Origin: Octopus vulgaris
Lineage: Eukaryota
DNA: 64,000 nt
Direction: 5' to 3'
Assembly: GCA_951406725.2 (NCBI GenBank)
Contig: OX597818.1
Coordinates: forward strand, 38,316,001 to 38,380,000
Position 1 is the first letter of the stretch; the number at the start of each line of letters is the position of its first letter. Below, in pieces: positions 6,603 to 64,000 of the stretch. Below the pieces are notes generated by a model. The model saw nothing but the letters and a program-made list of their open reading frames with translations, was not told where the DNA came from and did no database searches. The position numbers were made by a program, and so were the translations under genes.

Positions 6603-7689
6603 ATATAGAGGAAGCTGTAGGTGAGTGGTGTGAAAGTATTTTATGGGTTAGAAGATGTGTTGCATGGAGAAGGTAACTGTGGCTGAGTGACATACTAATG
6701 AGGATGGAAACATTGCTGAAATTGAAGGGAAAGTTGTGTACGGTATGTGTGAAGTGCTATAATTCATGGGAATAAGATATGGGTATGTGGAATAGCAGAA
6801 AGAGCTGGAAAGAATGGAAATAAAAATACTTCAGTGAATAAGCAAAATAATACTGAGAAAAAAGGTAGACAATGACTTGCAGAAGATGGTAAGAATAGAG
6901 GCAATTATGAATGTTCTGGTAAAATATAGGATGAGGTAGCTGGGTCATGTGATAAGGAAAGATGTTAATGACTGGGTGAGAGGTGCGACGGAAATGAATG
7001 TAGAAGAAAATAGAGGAAGTAGATCAAAAAGACATGGTGTGGAATGAATAAAGGAGAGCAGTTGGGTTGGTGAGGGGGAAGTAAAGGATGAGGCAAAAAA
7101 GAGAAATGTCATGAGACCCTCTAGGTTAACTTCAGCTTGGGAAATGTTATTCACAGTCCACAAACTCATATTTTGCAACAGTCATTCAAATGTCCTTCTG
7201 AATAAGGCAAACTCATGAGTGATACTCTACATGGTCACCCAATCAACTAGAAATAACAGCCAAAACTTCTTCAAATCATACCTCATCATCTAAAAAATTA
7301 GGAGGTCGAGGTGCTATTGTAGTGACAGACACACTATGTCTGGGAAAAAGATAATTGGTTGCTTGGTCATGGCTGGACTGCTTTGGCCATAGGTTACTCA
7401 ACTGAGACTGATCAAAGTCTAAACAACAACATCAGCTCAAACAACAACAACAACAGCTAAATCTCGTCCCCTATCACAATTCACCATCTTAAAAAAGAAA
7501 GTACACAGCAAATAATATAAAACCAGAGGTAAATGAGTTGATCATGGTTAGAATGCCTTAAAGCAGAGGTTTATGCAAGAATTGCTGACCTGGGGTTAGA
7601 GTCAATCAAAGCCATCTGCAAGAAATTTTGGTGCATAGAGTTTGTGAGGAAGTATATAAGAAGTACTGTTTCTGCTGCTGAGTGGTATA

Positions 7690-8204
7690 CCGTAAATCCT
7701 CGAGTATAGTCCGCATTTTTTTCCCAAAATTTAAAGGTCAAAATCCCTAATGCTTACTATATACGAGGTTAAAAATGAAAATTATTTTCTAAGCAATGTC
7801 CGAGTCTCTATTTGCTGTCTGGCTATGTTTATTCAGATGCATTTTGTGATGTTGGGCGTGAAAATACCTTAAGCTAAGCCTGAAAGCAATGAAACCATAA
7901 AAGAATCAACCATAACATGCAGTAAGCAACATTTATTAAACGTTATTAGTGTTACTTCTTTATTTTCTGCAAACAAAATGCACAAAAAAGCTACACGTTT
8001 GCATTATGTTATATATACAATAATAATAATAAAGGACATTACCGTATACATTTTTACAAACCAAGGACATTATATAGACCTCCTTGACTTAAGTTAGAGA
8101 AGGGGTGCGTATTATACACAAAGTTTAGGTTTTTCAGAGGTACAGCCCCCAAAAAATCCCCTGCGTATTATACTCAAGAGTGGACTATACTCGAGGATTT
8201 ACGG
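7690..8204. mobile_element. Tc1/mariner-superfamily (pogo/Tc2-like) MITE
   Basis: TIRs CCGTAAATCCTCGAGTATAGTCC / GGACTATACTCGAGGATTTACGG flanked by TA, with sub-terminal repeats. Confidence 0.85.
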
Positions 8205-11694: not shown

Positions 11695-13619
11695 CATCAT
11701 CATCATCATCATTTAGCGTCCGTTTTCCATGCTAGCATGGGTTGGACGGTTCTACTGGGGTCTGTGAAGCCAGAAGGCTTCATCAGGCCCAGTCAAATCT
11801 GGCAGTGTTTCTACGGCGGGATGCCCTTCCTAACGCCAACCACTCCGTGAGTGTAGTGGGTGCTTTTTACGTGCCACCCGCACTGGTGCCAGACAGAGCT
11901 GGCAAACGGCCACGAACGGATGGTGCTTTTTATGTGCCACCGGCACGAGGGCCAGGCGAGGCTGGCAACGGACACGAAACGGGGCGGTGCTGGCAACGGT
12001 CGCGAAACGGAAAGTTCTCTTACATGCCACCGGCACTGGTAACACATCTGCAATTTCCATTGATCGATTTCGATTCTGATCCTCACTTGCCTCAATGGGT
12101 CTTCACAAGCAGAGTTTCGACATGCCACCGGCACTGGTAGCACATCCGCAATTTCCATTGATCGATTTCGATTCTGATCCTCACTTGCCTCAACACGTCT
12201 TCACAAGTAGAGTTTTGTGTCCCAAGAAGGGAAGGTATGCATACGTAGGCTGGCTCCATCCCATGTAGAAGGCCACGGGTTGTGGACTCACTTGTCCTGC
12301 CGGGTCTTCTCGCGCACAGCACACTTCCAGAGGTCTCGGTCTCTAGTCATTTCCTCAGTGAGACCTAAAGTTCGAAGGTCGTGCTTCACCACCTCGTCCC
12401 AGGTTTTCCTGGGTCTGCCTCTTCCACAGGTTCCCTCAACCGCTAGGGTGTGGCACTTTTTCACACAACTATCTTCATCCATTCTCGCCACATGACCATA
12501 CCAGCGCAAACGTCTCTCTTGCACACCACAACTGATGCTTCTTAGGTCCAGCTTTTCTCTCAAGGTACTTACACTCTGCCGAGTGTGAGTACCGGCATTA
12601 CACATCCATCGGAGCATACTGGCTTCATTTCTAGCGAGCTTACGCATATCCTCAGCAGTCACGGCCCATGTTTCACTGCCATGTAGCATGGCTGTTCGTA
12701 CACACGCATCATACAGTCTGCCTTTCACTCTGTGCGAGAGGCCTTTTGTCACCAGCAGAGGTAAGAGCTCTCTGAACTTTGCCCAAGCTATTCTTACTCT
12801 AGCAGTTACACTTTCAGCACACCCGCCCCCGCTGCTGACTTGGTCACCTAGGTAACGGAAACTATCAACTATTTCTAGTTTTTCTCCCTGGAAAGTGACG
12901 GAAGTTGGTCTCAGAGCATTTTCAGTGTTTATTGTTCCTGAGCATCTGCCACATACAAAAACCATCTTCCTAGTTAGCCTTCCTTTGACATTGCTGCATC
13001 TCTTATGTGTCCATAGCTTACACTTGGTGCATCTTATAGAGTTTCTACCTACACCTTTTCTACAGATCGAGCAGGGCCATCTACCTGAAGGTGTTTGTGA
13101 TTTGTCTACCTTCCTACTGATTACGACTTTGGTTTTAGCTAGATTGACTCTGAGGCCCTTCGATTCTAATCCTTGTTTCCACACCTGAAACTTCTCCTCC
13201 AGTTCTGATAGCGACTCAGCAATTAGAGCAAGGTCATCAGCATAGAGGAGCTCCCAAGGGCATCCTGTCTTGAATTCCTCCGTTATTGCCTGGAGGACTA
13301 TGATAAATAGGAGGGGGCTGAGTACTGAGCCTTGGTGGACCCCTACCTCTACCCGGAATTCTTCACTGTACTCATTTCCAACCCTCACCCTACTAGCAGC
13401 GTCCCTATACATGGCCCGCACAGCTCTCACTAACCATTCATCTATCCCTAGTTTTCTCATTGCCCACCAGATAAGGGATCGGGGGACCCTGTCGAAGGCT
13501 TTCTCCATGTCAACAAAAGCCAGGTACAGGGGCTTATCTTTGGCTAGGTATTTCTCCTGCAGCTGCCTTACCAGGAATATAGCATCAGTAGTACTTTTCC
13601 CTGGCACAAACCCAAACTG
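11695..13619 (-). mobile_element. Young 5'-truncated RTE-clade LINE in the INTS12 intron between coding exons 3 and 4 (same strand as the gene)
   Basis: Uninterrupted RT frame starting at QFGFVPG, about 590 nt of 3' UTR and a (GAT)n tail. No clear TSD seen. Confidence 0.92.
12288..13607 (-). CDS. RTE reverse transcriptase ORF (N-terminally truncated, 439 codons) with an internal PHD-type zinc finger
   Basis: FVDMEKAFD, GVHQGSVLSPLLF, YADD and FRYLG motifs, plus the RTE-typical RRLRWYGHVAR..GRGRPRKTW C-terminus. The endonuclease is missing, so it is non-autonomous. Confidence 0.85.
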   Translation of the reverse strand: MPGKSTTDAIFLVRQLQEKYLAKDKPLYLAFVDMEKAFDRVPRSLIWWAMRKLGIDEWLVRAVRAMYRDAASRVRVGNEYSEEFRVEVGVHQGSVLSPLLFIIVLQAITEEFKTGCPWELLYADDLALIAESLSELEEKFQVWKQGLESKGLRVNLAKTKVVISRKVDKSQTPSGRWPCSICRKGVGRNSIRCTKCKLWTHKRCSNVKGRLTRKMVFVCGRCSGTINTENALRPTSVTFQGEKLEIVDSFRYLGDQVSSGGGCAESVTARVRIAWAKFRELLPLLVTKGLSHRVKGRLYDACVRTAMLHGSETWAVTAEDMRKLARNEASMLRWMCNAGTHTRQSVSTLREKLDLRSISCGVQERRLRWYGHVARMDEDSCVKKCHTLAVEGTCGRGRPRKTWDEVVKHDLRTLGLTEEMTRDRDLWKCAVREKTRQDK

Positions 13620-13747
13620 TTTTAAATAATTTAAATAATTATAATATAGTAAATTATAATTATTTAAAGTTCTTACAAACTTCTAATACAATGAAATAAA
13701 GTATATGTTGATAATATAGTGGAGTCAGTCAAATTGATGATTGTCTT

Positions 13748-16670: not shown

Positions 16671-17403
16671 GAGCACCATGAAATGTTTTATAGATCAACT
16701 TGGTTTGTACAGGACTGGTTTCAGGTTCAATCCCACAGCTTAACACATTGGGCGAGTGTCTTCTACTACAGTCCTGGGCTGACCAATGCATTCTAAGTTG
16801 ATTTGGTAAACAGAAACTGAAAGAATCCCCTTGTATATGCACATATATGCATAGATATGAGTATTTATATGCATGAGTGTGTGCACGTTCATGTGTGTGT
16901 GTTTACTTGTCTTAGCATCGCACCATACAAACTGTGCCATCCATTTCCAATATTCTACAAAAACATATCTGGTCATGGAGAAATATTACCTAGCTTGGAA
17001 ACAGGTGAGGGTGAGCAGCAGGAAGGACATCCAGCCGTAGAAAATTTGCTTTGTCCAACCCATGCAAATATGGAAAAGCAGATATTAAAAAATGACCGCC
17101 GCCCCGACTGGCCTCATGCCGGTGGCATGTAAAAAGCACCATCTGATCGTGGCCATTTGCCAGCCTCGTCTGGCACCTGTGCCGGTGGCATGTAAAAAGC
17201 ACCCACTACACTCACGGAGTGGTTGGCGTTAGGAAGGGCATCCAACCGTAGAAACATTGCCAGATCAGTCTGGGCCTGGAGCAGCCTTCTGGTTTCCCAG
17301 ACCCCAGTTGAACCGTTCAACCCATGCTAGCATGGAAAGCGGACGCTAAACGATGATGATGATGATGATGATGATAACAAGGAACAATTTCAAAGATACT
17401 TAC

Positions 17404-17768
17404 TGACAGTTAACACATGCTATACCAAGATCAAGAATAAAATCAGCAGTGTCCATATTATCATCACTGGAACCTAAAGCTTCTGGTTCCTTGAAAGAAG
17501 ATGATTTCTCAACAACCACTGCTGATTTTTCTGTCTTTTCTGCAGTTGCTGCCGTCGCAGCAGCTTTTTCTGACATAGCCTTTTCTCTCCTTTCCTTGTC
17601 TTCTTTATCTTTCAGTTCACGTTCTTTTCTACTCCTTTCTTTCTCTCGTTCTTTTTCCATCTCTCGCTCTTTCTCTTTATTCGGTTTTTCTTCCTTCTCT
17701 AGTGACGAAAATAAATCCAGTCTAGGTTTCTTGCTTTCTTGAAGAGTTTCCATGAAGTCATGTTTCAC
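17404..17768 (-). CDS. INTS12: INTS12 coding exon 2 (charged linker to start of PHD)
   Basis: ttcag acceptor and gtaagt donor, 365 nt, phase 0/2. Encodes VKHDFMETLQ...DFILDLGIACVNC, matching the INTS12 DF-..-.G-ACV.C motif. Confidence 0.92.
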
Positions 17769-19092
17769 CTGAAGAATAAAATATGAAAACAACCTAAGAA
17801 TTAAACAAAATATGCAAAGCAACCTTGAAGAACCCCATCTCCTAAATTTGAAGACCAATACAGCTGGTGTATAATTATACTCATAGGTGCTGGTGGCACA
17901 TAAAAAGCACCAGCCGATTGTGGCCATCTCAGTTAATCTACATCATCCCGATAATCTTCCTTATGTTTGTAAGCTCTAAGATGACTCTTAAGACCTGATA
18001 ACCTGCAAGGCTTCAAACATGTGACAGATAAGATACGAAACTTCAACATGGTTTATATAGCTTACTTGTGATATAATAATTTTATCCACTTTCATGTGCC
18101 TTTTCACACTAGGATTACTCCAAAAGATTTTTCTTCACATACTACACAGACATGACCATAAAAAGGGGCAAATAACTGTTTGATGCAGCATAATTTTGCA
18201 AATTGCTGTGTGATTTCATGTGGCATATGTAACCAGCTTTTGATAGATGTCAATCACAAAGACTACATTTCCAACTCTTAACCTCATCTGGTATGTCCAT
18301 GATGCCTACCTTTTTCAGAATACATTTTAACTGCATGCCACCTTATGGCTAACTCAAAACAAGCAATACCTTCCTTCACCAGAGACCTCCAGTCATTTCT
18401 ATCAATTGTTTTCTCTTGTCAGAATTGAACATCTATTTTCAAATTCACTAAGGTTCAACGAATAGTCTGTATAACAAGTTTTTTTGGGGGGAGTGGGGCT
18501 TATGCTGTGGTCATTTTCCCGGCTGTACCTCCCCATAAAATAACTGCTTGGGTGGTCCCAAAGCTGGCATACCAACAAGATACTCTGTCCATTGCATTTG
18601 ATTTGATATCATGTATGACTCAGTAGACAGGATCTACACAATAGTACATACATACAAATATAGTGTTCAAATGATTTAAACTTAGACTCCAATGTTCTTA
18701 CAAGGAACCAATTTTACAGGGTAAAGAGTTGTCCCTTGTAAAGACATTGCAGAATTGGTCTTTCGTAAAAACATCAGAGTCTAAGTTTGAATGAAAATGA
18801 ATAGATGTTTTTTTGAGTGTTAAAACTGACAGAATCAACGGGGTATTCAGTTACCAGTCAATAGGTTGACCCATCAAGTACTACATCTTCTTAGTAAAGA
18901 TACTTATATGATAATTGCCATTTCAGCCTAGTGTAAATAAGAACAATATAAGTAATTAATGACTGTAGATTGTATCAACAGGGTCATTGTATAAATGATT
19001 TGTATTTTGTTAGGCTGAAGTTGTTGAGATTAAATTTTTTATAGACTAAAAGAAGGCAACAAGAAACCACTCTAGCATGTTATGTCACTTAA

Positions 19093-20024: not shown

Positions 20025-20807
20025 TTTATTTGGGAGCCTGAAATTAGAAGATTAATTAGAAGTGAGAAGAATTTTTAACAAACAAAAGATCATCAACATA
20101 ATTTAATACAACTATAAATAACATATGTGTGTTCAAATTCCGCCAAGGTCGACTTTGCCTTTCATCCTTTCGGGGTCGATAAATTAAGTACTAGTTATGC
20201 ATTGGGGTCGATGTAATCGACTTAATCCCTTTGTCTGTCCTTGTTTGTCCCCTCTGTGTTTAGCCCCTTGTGGGCAATAAAGAAATAAATAACATATGTG
20301 TGTCATTTGAAAGTGGAGAGGCCAGCATGTCTAGTGGATTATGAAAGGATACTGGCAAGATATAGGATCACCCAAATTGGTAAGAGTGAGAACAAGAAAC
20401 CAGATAAAGCTAAAGACTACAAAAGGGTGTTTTAACACATTCTGTAATAATTACATAAGTCTAAAACTGGCCTCAGAGTAACCAGTAAACAATCTCTAAA
20501 TAAAGAATAAAGTTACCTCAATATCTCTTCCTAATACAGGATCATAAAACCAAAGTACAAAACAGCCAGAGTATTGTAATATTAATTAATGTTTTGGAAG
20601 GCATTAATAAATCTCCGAACGAGATGTAAACAGTAACCGCTCGACAACGTAAAGTGTACTAGCCATCTCAATGTGGCTAGCCACTGGGGGTGGGTGTTAC
20701 TGAAGCTTTTAGTCCCAGGAGATCATCGTCTCCAGCTGGCTTTAGACACACTTTCTGTGCCCTTCTGATATTCGCAAAGGGAGGTCATCCCCTCTCGAAA
20801 AACCAAA

Positions 20808-20866
20808 GTGATATATACAGACTATAGTTTCGAGGTTTTTGCCTTTCGTCAACGTATGGTAATCAC
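20808..20866 (-). ncRNA. Type I hammerhead ribozyme (U3.G8 core), family 1, minus copy
   Basis: GTGAT TAC CATACG TTGACGA AAGG CAAAAA CCTC GAAAC TATA GTC TGTATA T ATCAC. One mismatch each in stems I and II. Confidence 0.7.
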
Positions 20867-21019
20867 CAGTTTTCGATTTACGTTGTCGAGCAGTTACTGT
20901 TTACATCTTGTTCAGAGATTTATTAATGCTTTCAGACAGTTTTTCTAAATCAGTGACAGTGGTTGCTGGGAAAAACATTAAATAGATATTCGCAAACAGG
21001 TCTCCCCAATTGAAAACCG

Positions 21020-21078
21020 GTGATTACCATATGTTGACGAGAGGCAAAAACCTCGAAACTATAGTCCGTATGTATCAC
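21020..21078 (+). ncRNA. Type I hammerhead ribozyme (U3.G8 core), family 1, plus copy
   Basis: GTGAT TAC CATATG TTGACGA GAGG CAAAAA CCTC GAAAC TATA GTC CGTATG T ATCAC. All stems pair. Predicted cleavage after C21066. Confidence 0.8.
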
Positions 21079-22844
21079 TTAGGTTTTTCAAGAGGGGATG
21101 ACCTCCCTTTGAGAATATCAGAAGGGCACAGAAAGTGTGTCTAAAGCCAGCTGGAGACGATGATCTCCTGGGGCTAAAAGCTTCAGTAACACCCACCCCC
21201 AGTGGCTAGCCACATTGAGATGGCTAGTACGCTTTACGTTAAATTAATGTTTTGTTCTCTTGGAATACTGAACTCAATCACATAAAAACAAGAATTTAAG
21301 TGTTGAAGAAGTATCATCATCATCATCATCATCTTTTAACATCCTCTTTCCATGCTGGCATGGGTTGGATGGTTTAACTGATGACTGGCAAGCCAGGAGG
21401 CTGCACCAGACTCCAATCTATTCTGGCATGGTTTCTACAGCTGGATGCCCTTTCTAACAGCAACCACTCCAAGAATGTAGTGGGTGCTTTTTATGTGCCA
21501 CTGGCATAGGGGCCAGTCAGGTGGTACTGGCATCGACCATGCTTGAATGGTGCTTTTTACGCCATGCCAAACTAAATAATATGAAAATAAATATGGTGAT
21601 GAAATCATCATCATCATCATCGCTTGGTCTGTCTGTTACCATGACGACTGTTCCAGTCGATCCAATCAACTGAACGTCCTGATTGAGAAATTAATGTGCA
21701 AGTGGCTGAGCATGCCACAGACATGCATATCCTTCACATAGTTCTCAGGAAGATTCAGTGTGACACAGAATGTGACAAAGCGGTCTTCATAAGTTATTAT
21801 GATGATTGAATGCGGATCCCTATGACCCCAGGAGATAAAGCTGATCATTAAATGAGTCCTGGCAAGGGTAAGTATCCCCTCAATTCTGAAGGCAGTGGAT
21901 TGTTCAATGATGATAGGAAAACACCCAAAGAACTTGCTCTTTACCTTTGGGGTTAGAGACAGATACTGCATACAAAGCATTGTTAGCAACTCTTTTGCTC
22001 CATTACAATTCCTTAATACTGTTGAGCCAATGAGGAAGCATCTACTTGGTCATTCTACCTGCTAGAAATAGAAGCCAAAATTCCTTCAAATCAATGCTAT
22101 TGCCCTAAAAAAAAAAGGCAACAACACATTAAGCTATATAGTACTAGACATCCCTAAAAAGACAGAAAGGTCACAAATGGGATGTTTTTGATCATAGGTC
22201 TCTCCAACCAGGGCTAATATAGGACTAAACATCAGAAGGGATGACTGCATCTGAACTGAATAAGACACTGAAATACTGTAATCTGTTGATAAATTACATA
22301 CAGCCTAAGGCTTTTGAGATGTTCAGGTGGGGAGCTAGACCTCAGACAAAGAGGTTTTTGACTTCGTTTGGATCTCTGAAGTGAAATATGATGTTCAGAA
22401 GAGTGTCCAGCTGTTCTAATACCCTAACTTCACAGTCACCAGTAGGTTTGGCTGTTCTAAAACCTCAACCTCACAATCACTTGCAGTAATGCTGTGAGAG
22501 TTTTAGGTTGTCTGAAAAATATTTTAGTGTCCTTTTGAACAATGAAGGAATGTGCACGCCTCTCTTTGATCATTGACTGATTTCATGCTTTTTCTATTTA
22601 TTCCTTTTCTTACTGGCAGAAACGTTAGCACGCCGGGCGAAATGCTTAGCAGTATTTCGTCTGCCGCTATGTTCTGAGTTCAAATTCCGCCAAGGTTTAC
22701 TTTGCCTTTCATCCTTTCGGGGTTAATAAATTAAGTACCAGTTACACACTGGGGGTTGATGTAATCGACTTAATCCGTTTGTCTATCCTTGTTTGTCCCT
22801 TCTGTATTTAGCCCCTTGTGGGTAGTAAAGAAATAGATAATTTT

Positions 22845-37548: not shown

Positions 37549-37909
37549 GTAAGTTTCCTTTTGTTAGTGGTCTATATTATTTTTCTGTTTTTTCAGTGTT
37601 TTATATTTAGTATGTAAGAATAGTGATGGATAATTGCCTCTTTTAACCATGAAAATTGGAACCTGTGTCAAAAATGTTGAAAGTGAACTATATTCAGCAT
37701 GAGAAATTACTACCAGTATCCAAGTTTTGAACTGTTTAGTTAAAAAAAAATAATTTAAAAAATCTGTGAGTGAAACTATAACGATCCATATTTTCTTTAT
37801 CTGTTCAAAACATGCTTGTTATAGCATCTTAAGTTTATTATTGTTTTTGACAAGACTTTACTTCTCAACATACTTTTTGATCTAAATTTCTTTCCTTATT
37901 TTATTTCAG

Positions 37910-38223
37910 CGGAAGCATCTCTAAATCCATTTGGAGTTATGGCGAGTCAACCAGTAAATGTATCACAAATTGGAATATCTGTTGAACCACTTCAAGACTT
38001 ATCTCAGCAGACACCTGCAACATCTGCAGCAGTGTCAAACCTTGAACCATTTATGGATTTCTCAAAGAAAATGGTTGAAAATCTGTTCAATTTTGCTTCG
38101 TCATTTGCTTCTAAAACTCCTATGAATCCATCCGAATCATATATTCCATTTAGTACTCTTGAAAAGTGGTACAATAACTTTCTTCGAAAGATGGAGCAAG
38201 ATCCCTATTTCTGGCGATCGTAG
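37910..38223 (+). CDS. HIKESHI: HIKESHI exon 4 (last coding exon)
   Basis: tttcag acceptor. Encodes ..QIGISVEP..KMVENLFNFASSF..YIPFSTLEKWYNNFLRKMEQDPYFWRS*. Total CDS 579 nt, 192 aa. Confidence 0.95.
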
Positions 38224-46047: not shown

Positions 46048-47967
46048 CTGTAAAAAATAATACAAGTGAAATACTGGTTTCAAATTTTGGCATCACACCA
46101 GCAAGTCTGAGGGAGGGAGTAAGTTAATTACATTGACCCCATTGCTTAGATAGTACTAATTTTATTGACCCCAAAAGGATGCAAAGTAAAGTCAACCTCA
46201 GTGGGATTTGAACTCAAAACATGAAGATGGATGAAACGCTGCTAAGCATTTTGCTTGGCATGCTAACAATTCTGCCAGCTCGCTGCTTTATGCAAGTGAA
46301 TTCATCATCATCGTCATTGTTTAACATCCGCTTTCCATGCTAGCATGGATTGGACGATTTGACTGAGGACTGGCAAACCAGATTGCTGCACCAGACTCCA
46401 ATCTGGTCTGGCAGAGTTTCTACAGCTGGATGCCCTTCCTAACGCAAACCACACCAAGAGTGTAGTGGGTGCTTTTATGTGCCACCGGCACGAGGGCCAG
46501 TCAGGCAGTACTGACAACGACCATGCTCAAATGGTGTCTTTTACATGCCACCTGCACAGGAGCCAGTCCAGCAGCACTAGCAACGACCTCGCTCGAATGT
46601 TTTTCATGTGCCAGTAAGTCAATGCTGGTAACGATCATGTTTGAATGGTGCTTTTTACGTGCCACCAGCACAGAAACCTGGCAGCGATCATGCTTGGATA
46701 GTGCTCTTAGCACTCCACTGGCACAGGTGCCAGTCATCGAACTTGTGAATTTGGCTTGATTTCGATTTCACTTGCCTCAACAGGTCTTTGCAAGCAGAGT
46801 TTAGTGTCCAATGAAGGAAAGGTATGCATAAGTGGGCTGGTTACACCCATGATGTAGGCCACCGATTATGGTCTCACTTGGCTAGCCGGGTCTTCTCAAG
46901 CACTGCATATTTCCAAAATATTAACAAAAGAGATAGTTATGTTTAAAAGGTGCAGAAATAGAACTGATTTTGTTATCTACGGATTTAATTTAGTGTGTCT
47001 TTCTTTCTTTTTATTACTTAATCAAGAAGTAAGTACTGTCTTGAGTCTGAGGACTCACAAGGGCCACTTTCCATGGCATGCAAGTGACTCGAGTCACAAA
47101 ATTTCCCCAGAACAGGATGCCAGTCCATCACATGGTTATCCTTTACAGCTGAGTGGACTGGAGCAATGTGAAATGAAGTGTTTTGCTCAAGAACACAATG
47201 CACCACCCAGTACAGGAATTGAAACCATGATCTTGAAATCGTGAGTACAACATGTAAACAACTAGGCCATGCACCTTCACTTAGTCAAGAAGTGCCAATG
47301 TCCTTTTTTTCAGAGCCTCTAAGACTGGCAAGAGGGAGAAAAGTTATCTCTAAACTAGAAACATAGCATGACTGCTAGCTACAGAATGGACTCCATTAAA
47401 GGCACCCAAGAGCCAGGTCAGATATGAGGGTATATGCATGTCTGAGTCAGTGTGAATGTTTACACTCTGCACTGAGCTGAACTAGGGTTGCTGTTATCTG
47501 TTGATATTTCCAGGTCAACAAATTGTCCAGTGGTTCTGTTCTTTTGAAGATGAGTGGAACAAAAAAAAATCTCTTACTAAAAAAACAGTAAAGAAATAGT
47601 GACAGAAAGGCCATCCAGGTAAAAACAATGCCTTGATAATATGTTTTCATTTAACCTATGTTGCAATGGAAAGAAAAACATGCATAAAATGAGCAAAGGA
47701 TCTCAGATATTCACAATAAATATACTAGAACCATAATTACAAAGAATAACTTGATAGGTATTTCAAGGAAGGCAGTTAAATTTTCATTACAATATATATA
47801 TATATATAACAACTAATGTAGGATAAAATTTTTTCGAGAAAAAAATTTTATCAATTTTCGGGGTTAATTCATAAGAATTTTCCCCTCTTCAGCGATAAAT
47901 ACGTGAGACATAAATGAAATACTTACTCATACCCATGGAAAAAGCAAGCACTAAGACCTAAGTACCC

Positions 47968-62942: not shown

Positions 62943-62984
<42 letters not shown>

Positions 62985-63141
62985 GTTATCGCCATACTAA
63001 TATGGCATTCTTATAAAAATAAGAATAAAGCTGTCCGCTTATTAGCTCCATGAGGCCATCGCCTTAAGTTAGCTATTTGATACACAAACTGTATCCATAT
63101 AACCTTCGAACAAGGGAGGTCAGTCGCTCCACACTACTTGA

Positions 63142-63197
63142 CCGGTAGCTACAGACGCGTTTCGGGGTATTGCCCCTTTTCAATGCAGCGTAGCCAG
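63142..63197 (-). ncRNA. Type I hammerhead ribozyme (U3-A8 core), family 2, minus copy
   Basis: CTGGC TAC GCTGCA TTGAAAA GGGG CAATA CCCC GAAAC GC GTC TGTAGC T ACCGG. Confidence 0.8.
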
Positions 63198-63593
63198 ACC
63201 AGTAGGTGTCGCTTCTGACAATCTCTGTTCAAAGGTTTTATTTACCTAGCTTCGGTGGAATACATCCACTTGTTTTCAATAATAGAAATATTAAATATTA
63301 AAATTATTATAACCTTGTTCGAAGGTTATATGGATACAGTTTGGTTATCAAATAGCTAACTTAAGGCGATGGCCTCATGGAGCTAATAAGCGGACAGCTT
63401 TATTCTTATTTTTATAAGAATGCCATATTAGTATGGCGATAACTATTATTTTCCGGGAACGCTGCCGTTGTTCTCTTTTAGAGAGACTTAGTAATTTTAA
63501 TATTTCTATTATTGAAAACAAGTGGATGTATTCCACCGAAGCTAGGTAAATAAAACCTTTGAACAGAGATTGTCAGAAGCGACACCTACTGGT

Positions 63594-63649
63594 CTGGCTA
63601 CGCTGCATTGAAAAGGGGCAATACCCCGAAACGCGTCTGTAGCTGCCGG
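63594..63649 (+). ncRNA. Type I hammerhead ribozyme (U3-A8 core), family 2, plus copy
   Basis: CTGGC TAC GCTGCA TTGAAAA GGGG CAATA CCCC GAAAC GC GTC TGTAGC T GCCGG. All stems pair. Predicted cleavage after C63637. Confidence 0.82.
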
Positions 63650-64000
63650 TCAAGTAGTGTGGAGCGACTGACCTCCCTTGTTCGAAGGTTATATGGATAC
63701 AGTTTGTGTATCAAATAGCTAACTTAAGGCGATGGCCTCATGGAGCTAATAAGCGGACAGCTTTATTCTTATTTTTATAAGAATGCCATATTAGTATGGC
63801 GATAACTATTATTTTCCGGGAACGCTGCCGTTGTTCTCTTTTAGAGAGACTTAGTAATTTTAATATTTCTATTATATATATATAATTAATTGTTATCGCC
63901 ATATTAATATGGCATTCTTATAGATATAAGAATAATCACTGCCGCTGGTCAGCTCCATGAGGCCACCGCCTTAAGATAGCTATTGATACACACTGTTGTA

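Follow-up and report, generated by a model that had tools for sequence, protein, structure and literature searches.

The motif shared by the hammerhead retrozyme families A and B in the window (the whole stretch of 64,000 nucleotides of Octopus vulgaris DNA that was analyzed) is the front half of a larger fold, composed of a sequence box, hairpins P2 and P3, a long-range helix P4 and hairpins P5 to P7. The fold was common to at least ten subfamilies of a clan of 354-364 nt hammerhead retrozymes in this genome, and sequence comparison indicates that the domain is a conserved structured RNA, with covariation beyond relatedness for P2, P3b and P4, not for P5-P7. The clan carries the footprint of Penelope-type elements (PLEs), i.e. 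variable 5' ends, an inverted 5'-truncated arm, two fixed 3' ends and AT/TA targets. The reading that we somewhat favor is that the domain would act as a docking and positioning signal for a PLE reverse transcriptase (RT)/endonuclease supplied in trans.

The shared motif in the window

Exact matches to TGACCTCCCTT in the window were restricted to 21099 and 63669 on the forward strand, and to 20787 and 63122 on the reverse strand, in inverted arms. The same box was therefore confirmed downstream of both hammerheads, as described in the earlier note, yet the distance of 20 nt given there needs correction: the box starts 32 nt (A) and 31 nt (B) past the predicted cleavage site, since the hammerhead cores span 21034-21066 and 63608-63637. 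Both hairpins and both bulged stem-loops described in that note were present and repeated in the inverted arms, and the monomer lengths of 356 nt (A) and 363 nt (B) were reproduced. No open reading frame of at least 130 codons overlapped A or B. The features of the family A copy are the following:

20597..21240, two-armed insertion (left arm 20597-20878, minus strand; right arm 20877-21240, plus strand)
20604..20767, minus strand, complete P2-P7 domain of the left arm (covariance model match, 146 bits)
20905..20933, plus strand, P7 hairpin, AGATTTA and fixed 3' end 2 (end 2 at approximately 20927-20933, the PLE tail end)
20985..21119, plus strand, predicted long rod carrying the hammerhead at its end (strands 20985-21033 and 21067-21119 paired in the circular fold)
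21034..21066, plus strand, type I hammerhead core, U3 variant with palindromic loop III (predicted cut after 21066)
21099..21109, plus strand, box TGACCTCCCTT (GACCT predicted paired to 20998-21002, CCC bulged)
21124..21142, plus strand, P2 hairpin, loop variable
21145..21175, plus strand, P3 bulged stem-loop (P3a, 4x3 internal loop, P3b, GATG loop at 21159-21162)
21184..21190, plus strand, 5' strand of P4 (partner GTTACTG downstream of site 1 in tandem or circular RNA; at 20893-20899 here)
21193-21205, plus strand, P5 hairpin, within the P4 loop
21206-21227, plus strand, P6 hairpin, within the P4 loop
21240, plus strand, fixed 3' end 1 (putative RT start site 1), 82 nt from the loop G and 174 nt past the cut

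In this copy the left arm ends at site 2 and the right arm at site 1, and the insertion is flanked by a 13-bp target duplication (20584-20596 and 21242-21254). The family B copy shows the reverse arrangement, with the left arm ending at site 1 and the right arm at site 2; the U3-A8 form of its hammerhead core is reported as a PLE variant (PMC4209133). Its features are:

62979..63875, two-armed insertion in (TA)n (left arm 62979-63300, minus strand; right arm 63300-63875, plus strand)
63608..63637, plus strand, type I hammerhead core, U3-A8 variant (predicted cut after 63637)
63669..63875, plus strand, domain (covariance model match, 123.8 bits)
63669-63679, plus strand, box
63696-63712, plus strand, P2
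63716-63748, plus strand, P3
63752-63761 with 63824-63832, plus strand, P4
63765-63784, plus strand, P5
63785-63800, plus strand, P6
63812, plus strand, site 1
63836-63846, plus strand, P7
63875, plus strand, site 2
63884..64000, minus strand, diverged B-type copy abutting B, GGTG loop, approximately 86% identical

The earlier note had placed the limits of the module at 21099-21181, which proved too narrow, as the conserved fold extends past 21181 into P4-P7. Folded alone, this 83-nt piece was not unusually stable (z of -1.4 and -1.3 for A and B, respectively), while the circular monomers were (z of -5.8 and -6.5). Thermodynamic folding predicted the same topology for the circular A and B monomers, in the order hammerhead-tipped rod, with the box as its partly bulged 3' strand, P2, P3, P4 enclosing P5, P6 and site 1, P7 and site 2. 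Over the circular monomers of A, B, G and H, z ranged from -5.3 to -9.6, and the hammerhead strand folded better than the opposite strand in all four families.

The two families had been considered otherwise dissimilar, a view not supported by global comparison: whole monomers shared 208 of 372 positions (56% identity vs. 46 ± 1.4% in 200 shuffles), and A and B are therefore homologous throughout, in agreement with the suggestion that they are ancient relatives. The similarity also exceeded that of shuffled sequences locally (score of 30 vs. a shuffled mean of 19, p 0.001, 2000 shuffles), and blastn returned one significant block (60/86 identity, E 4e-4).

Other features were observed around these copies. 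A further minimal motif resembling a hammerhead (CTGAAGA core), with a TA run at its end, lies at 47853-47892 (minus strand) and also at L122 (minus strand, 1272), and represents a different family without the module. The window also contains a 464-aa open frame resembling a reverse transcriptase (LINE fragment; 12291-13682, minus strand) and two host-exon-like open frames, one with a charged KE/RE-rich stretch (17403-17942, minus strand) and one with a conserved-looking segment ending in WYNNF (37825-38220, plus strand). A co-oriented LINE-like element with a zinc-knuckle ORF1 was found to interrupt A and B monomers at corresponding bases, which lie 46-47 nt upstream of the cut (A: L011, ~1-1237, and L022, ~1-1193; B: L055, ~1-1347; all on the minus strand, equivalent to window positions 21019/21020 in A and 63591/63592 in B). 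A motif of the type T(C/T)RCTGGAAAAA, possibly a promoter element, recurs approximately 45-60 nt upstream of this LINE site, at window positions ~20960-20976 and at the equivalent positions of D, D3, E and F.

Covariation of the fold

In order to compare the fold among subfamilies, 20 long-arm copies (one or two top copies of each subfamily, and singletons) were chosen from 232 anchored copies and aligned with MAFFT. RNAalifold run on this sequence-only alignment recovered P2, P3a, P3b, P4, part of P5, and P6. In the 36-pair structure, 90.5% of the cells paired, compared to 28-51% in slid controls, and 16 of the 36 pairs were changed on both sides. The claim that the stems covary was upheld on a tree for P2, P3b and P4. 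Using Fitch parsimony on a FastTree tree, with a branch-weighted null counting every co-occurrence, 18 compensatory events were detected over the whole structure against a null mean of 4.1 (p 2e-4), including 7 in P3b (1.5 expected, p 2e-4), 6 in P4 (0.9 expected, p 2e-4) and 3 in P2 (0.5 expected, p 0.01). In this tree-aware test covariation was not significant for P3a, P5, P6 and P7; at P5, where B and C are misaligned, it was not significant after a one-column register shift either. A-C mismatches occur in P3b and P4 of both A and B. A pseudoknot between the CCC bulge and the UGG of P3 was also considered and set aside, as there was no covariation by which to assess it.

The covariance model was further applied to families G, H and J, which had not been included in it, and scored 91, 58 and 97 bits, respectively. 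These families keep P2, P3, P4, P6 and P7, with P6 changed on both sides in H and J, and differ in their P3 loops. The conservation of the GATG and ARCT/TGG loops stated in the earlier note thus holds in A-F, although for C-F it is partly circular because the search patterns required the P3 loop letters, and it does not extend to G, H and J, where the loops vary.

The retrozyme clan in the genome

The searched genome comprised 2.8 Gb. A 31-place P3 pattern had 4064 exact matches, compared to 0 for the reversed control. Further patterns, which demanded a difference at one P3b pair and fixed the letters of the P3 loop, extended the clan: one that ruled out A, B and C by a single pair yielded 378 matches, leading to subfamilies D, D3, E and F, and pairing at that position, altered on both sides by design, was retained in 64 of 71 copies (70 loci fetched). 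A second exclusion pattern at a P3b pair produced only 6 matches, 4 of which were paired. Families G, H and J were found by a profile scan of PLE flanks, without the P3 pattern. Since further families exist and the covariation is significant on a tree, neither of the outcomes that the earlier note had named as counting against its proposal was found.

Monomer lengths across the clan were 356, 363, 361, 364 and 354 nt (361 in G and 364 in H), with tandem arrays of up to 6 units in family B. H and J were abundant families, and B and H were young, with copies approximately 99% identical. Hammerhead cores were present in A, B, D, D3, E, F, G, H and J, mostly as minimal or U3 variants, and scored below Rfam thresholds. 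The box varied among families (GACCTCCC, TAGCTCCC, TATCTCCC and TGTCTCCC). Two repeat copies matched the box, P2 and P3a weakly and partially (L173:5800-6060 and 7500-7830), possibly representing a decayed or more distant member of the clan, and a 5S rRNA-like match above the Rfam gathering score adjoined an E-family copy (L194:138-255, minus strand).

Outside this genome, a metagenome scan with a strict P2-P3 pattern covering A-F gave 0 matches in a dataset where animals are poorly represented, and bears only weakly on range. Family B words occurred in sequencing runs coded as 7 organisms; contigs from 4 runs presumed to be RNA showed neither ends nor strand, and argue neither for nor against expression.

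Fixed 3' ends and two-armed insertions

Copies of the clan had variable 5' ends, a frequent inverted second arm, tandem units, two fixed 3' ends and AT/TA targets. The structure of A and B copies was examined in the 30 top-scoring loci of each family, with end positions measured from the first G of the P3 loop. Among the 42 distinct ends of family A, 22 fell at 72-85 (14 at 82) and 17 at 120-132, the remaining ones being 2 at 217 and 1 read-through. Family B showed 52 distinct ends, with 20 at 79-86 (13 at 82), 24 at 125-154 (13 at 145), 6 read-through and 2 others, and family H showed 44, with 22 at 71-81 (18 at 81), 20 at 130-138 and 2 others. Site-1 modes of 81-83 were obtained in C, D, D3 and F as well, from small samples and in an analysis whose site-2 values are unreliable, while the ends of E were scattered, with no constant site 1. 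Overall, six of the seven subfamily clusters, and H as well, had site 1 at a distance of 81-83 nt from the P3 loop, inside the loop closed by P4 in the predicted fold; the spacing of site 2 varied (129, 136 and 145). The constant spacing of site 1 could also result from homology alone. Many ends showed TA microhomology, which blurs their position by up to 3 nt; in family A the ends were sharp at 82, and microhomology there did not exceed 1 nt.

The two ends were distributed between arms in a regular manner. Among 27, 29 and 29 distinct loci of A, B and H, 13, 13 and 17 had one scorable end per strand, and 41 of these 43 two-armed insertions combined one site-1 arm with one site-2 arm (12/13 in A, 12/13 in B and 17/17 in H). 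Clan copies and PLEs were often stacked in one TA run (L292:5141-5452, L299:6743-7100, L236, and window positions 63875-64000), which demonstrates a shared target preference.

Search for an autonomous partner

Candidate partners were obtained with a GIY-YIG family search and a second PLE protein search, and 40 flank fetches plus 10 long fetches were taken; as the best 150 of 6136 and the best 150 of 10838 candidates were scored, a PLE partner may be unseen. The sharing of the module with the terminus of an autonomous element, expected in the earlier note, was not found in the protein-coding PLEs examined: in 74 + 20 sources, including intact 781-aa and 884/1008-aa families, the covariance model retrieved only independent clan insertions, and no clan-domain match was obtained in the pLTRs of the fetched PLE families, an incomplete list. 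PLE fragments lying beside clan copies were also evaluated as partners and rejected, as they correspond to separate insertions, split by TA repeats or unrelated DNA (L060/L172, L041/L171, L155, L236, L292 and L299).

Two young intact PLEs could be described. The first has a 781-aa RT/GIY-YIG frame, overlapped on its upstream side by a 479-aa frame without Pfam match (L124:568-4268, L121 and L140), and its pLTR contains CCAAT/TGACGTC repeats and what looks like an intron that ends at the hammerhead. The second (884/1008 aa) is very abundant and C-rich, with 6.2-kb tandems and a (CA)-rich 3' region of approximately 2 kb (L290-L299; C10:97804000-97830000). The pLTRs of both contain hammerhead-like motifs, and both insert at TA targets. 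The 781-aa PLE showed two fixed ends, 72 and 106-112 nt past the predicted cut (20 of 25 ends at 61-72, 4 at 106-112 and 1 read-through), and in the 884-aa PLE 4 of 7 ends were located at 99; in both elements the fixed ends are predicted inside a long-range helix. The 5' strand of this helix in the 781-aa PLE matched the clan P4 at 9 of 10 nt, a post hoc match expected at ~0.012 per 120 nt, uncorrected for the families examined, and with a different spacing to the start sites. The resemblance may be regarded as a weak lead towards the partner.

Comparison with known systems

The module was suggested to be an undescribed motif, and no Rfam family matched it at the gathering score; a snoRNA match (13.9 bits, E 8.3) and a lncRNA match over P3 (10.4 bits, E 5.9) were at chance level, and the remaining Rfam matches fell in simple repeats or on the inverted-repeat junction. 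No description of the domain was found in the literature searched, although the supplementary folds of PMC7229834 may show similar ones. The element class is already known; what is added here is the tree-aware covariation test, the constant site 1 within P4, the distant families G, H and J and the negative search for a partner.

Mussel non-LTR retrozymes have been reported with monomers of 350-390 nt, and retrozyme circles in general have been described as highly self-paired (Cervera and de la Peña 2020, PMC7229834). Animal retrozymes form circles, probably via tRNA ligase, an activity shown in vitro for those of mussel and axolotl, and PLEs have been proposed as the mobilizer (PMC7229834; bioRxiv 10.64898/2026.07.22.740005), with the mechanism of mobilization left open by Li, Clavereau and Pollet (bioRxiv 10.64898/2026.07.22.740005). 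The clan resembles metazoan non-LTR retrozymes in that its tandem monomers of 354-364 nt are non-coding and low in GC, contain a type I hammerhead, form a stable predicted circular fold and co-occur with PLEs. It differs from them in its mostly minimal or U3 hammerheads and in that no homologous protein-coding PLE pLTR was found among the families fetched; a conserved non-catalytic domain across families and RT start sites are likewise absent from the published descriptions, as far as the portions consulted extend.

PAc, a PLE of the Poseidon type from Anolis, encodes a protein that cleaves both strands and initiates at two internal positions past its hammerhead, and for which RNA spanning the start sites, to +172, is needed (Frangieh et al. 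2024, PMC11167929). Two internal RT starts past the hammerhead (putative in the clan), a tail signature, AT-rich targets, extension of both strands and RNA flanking the starts on both sides (required in PAc) are common to PAc and the clan. In contrast, the RNA required by PAc is the first 172 nt of the ORF, its site 1 lies approximately 85-92 nt past the cut (174-175 in the clan), the use of its start sites did not differ between strands in vitro, whereas each clan insertion uses one site per arm, and no covarying structure is defined for it in the sections consulted of that study. Like EN+ PLEs and non-autonomous Chlamys such as MRC1, the clan shows truncation at the 5' end, partial tandems, an inverted copy that is itself 5'-truncated, a tail on one side and a (TA)n bias (Craig et al. 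2021, PMC8557442); its tails are longer (47-63 nt vs. 30-40 nt, PMC8557442), and it shares no 3' sequence with an identified autonomous family.

Proposed function and alternative explanations

According to the proposed model, tandem copies would be transcribed from a start approximately 46-47 nt upstream of the hammerhead cut, and the hammerhead would free monomers of ~360 nt, probably circularized by tRNA ligase. A PLE protein, acting as a dimer as predicted for the anole element, would bind P2/P3/P4 and cut both strands of an AT- or TA-rich target; one cDNA would be initiated at site 1, in the unpaired region that P4 encloses, and its counterpart at site 2, immediately 3' of P7, and the two 5'-truncated cDNAs would then join head to head. 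Among the roles suggested in the earlier note, RT recognition would fit the fixed spacing to start site 1 and its enclosure by P4, whereas a promoter is unlikely because the module is located ~80-160 nt downstream of the LINE insertion site in A and B, the putative transcription start. The module may still contribute to ligation, but the cleaved ends would be joined by the rod, not by P2/P3.

There is an appreciable, though clearly minor, chance that the fold serves instead the life of the circular RNA (compactness, evasion of nucleases or immunity, ligation, localization or binding of a host protein), with local unpaired AU-rich sequence matching the TA target and setting the RT starts. Conservation of the fold over the whole monomer, beyond the module, is consistent with this possibility, as are the absence of P2/P3 from the protein-coding PLEs examined, the TA microhomology at many ends and the self-paired retrozyme circles reported in PMC7229834. 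However, general stability predicts neither a fixed branched topology nor the retention of internal loops, and site 1 is constant across families that differ in their local site-1 sequence, family A ending sharply almost without microhomology.

We consider it improbable that shared ancestry without selection on the module accounts for the pattern, compensation having arisen by template switching at quasi-palindromes or by selection on hairpins of single-stranded cDNA. The homology of A and B throughout and their A-C mismatches in P3b and P4 are compatible with such an origin, and template switching at hairpins could yield compensated double mutants such as those found in 4 of the 6 single copies retrieved at one P3b pair. 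Yet the strands of P4 are separated by ~60 nt and flank site 1, and still accumulated several times the expected compensatory events, and the better folding of the hammerhead strand in every family evaluated also argues against this explanation.

Very unlikely, in our view, is that the conserved letters are DNA elements for the promoter or 3'-end formation of an snRNA-type transcription unit: the co-oriented LINE inserted at matching bases of A and B, 46-47 nt before the cut, would agree with a transcription start there, but the module lies downstream of that site, a DNA element is not expected to show base-pair covariation, and the box itself varies among families. Finally, P3 or P2-P3 has the layout of a minimal ribozyme, with a conserved internal loop between covarying stems (PMC11620745), but a second small ribozyme, cleaving or ligating, is hardly credible given the lack of an Rfam ribozyme match, the 4x3 P3 loop without the conserved CA (vs. 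a twister-sister-like 5x6 loop with a scissile CA, PMC11620745) and the change of loop letters in G, H and J.

Implications for retrozyme mobilization

The docking and positioning reading has a more specific form, offered tentatively, in which the arrangement would be telomerase-like: the P4 loop would hold the template start and P2/P3 would bind the PLE enzyme, one RNA serving a dimer at two sites, one per target strand, and the domain would be the first defined cis-acting one recruiting a PLE RT to a circular retrozyme. SINE 3' stem-loops bound by the RT of the partner LINE, the 3'UTR of R2 and the template loop of telomerase RNA are known cases in which an RNA structure recruits an RT. The clan domain would likewise recruit an RT and set the start of copying, by analogy only, and it differs from these RNAs in lacking sequence or Rfam similarity to them, and in having an internal start spanned by a helix. 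PLE RTs are reported to be sister to telomerase RT (PMC8557442).

If the fold merely stabilizes the circle, the gain would be modest and confined to retrozyme annotation. If the telomerase-like reading is correct, the clan would mimic its partner in structure without having to match it in sequence, and the domain could be used to have cargo RNA inserted by PLEs at TA repeats. The sole in vitro study of a PLE found internal initiation and left the RNA element undefined, and the clan supplies a structure of ~210 nt, from the box to site 2, supported by covariation. With start sites mapped in young families and intact young PLE ORFs in the same genome, binding and initiation become directly testable.
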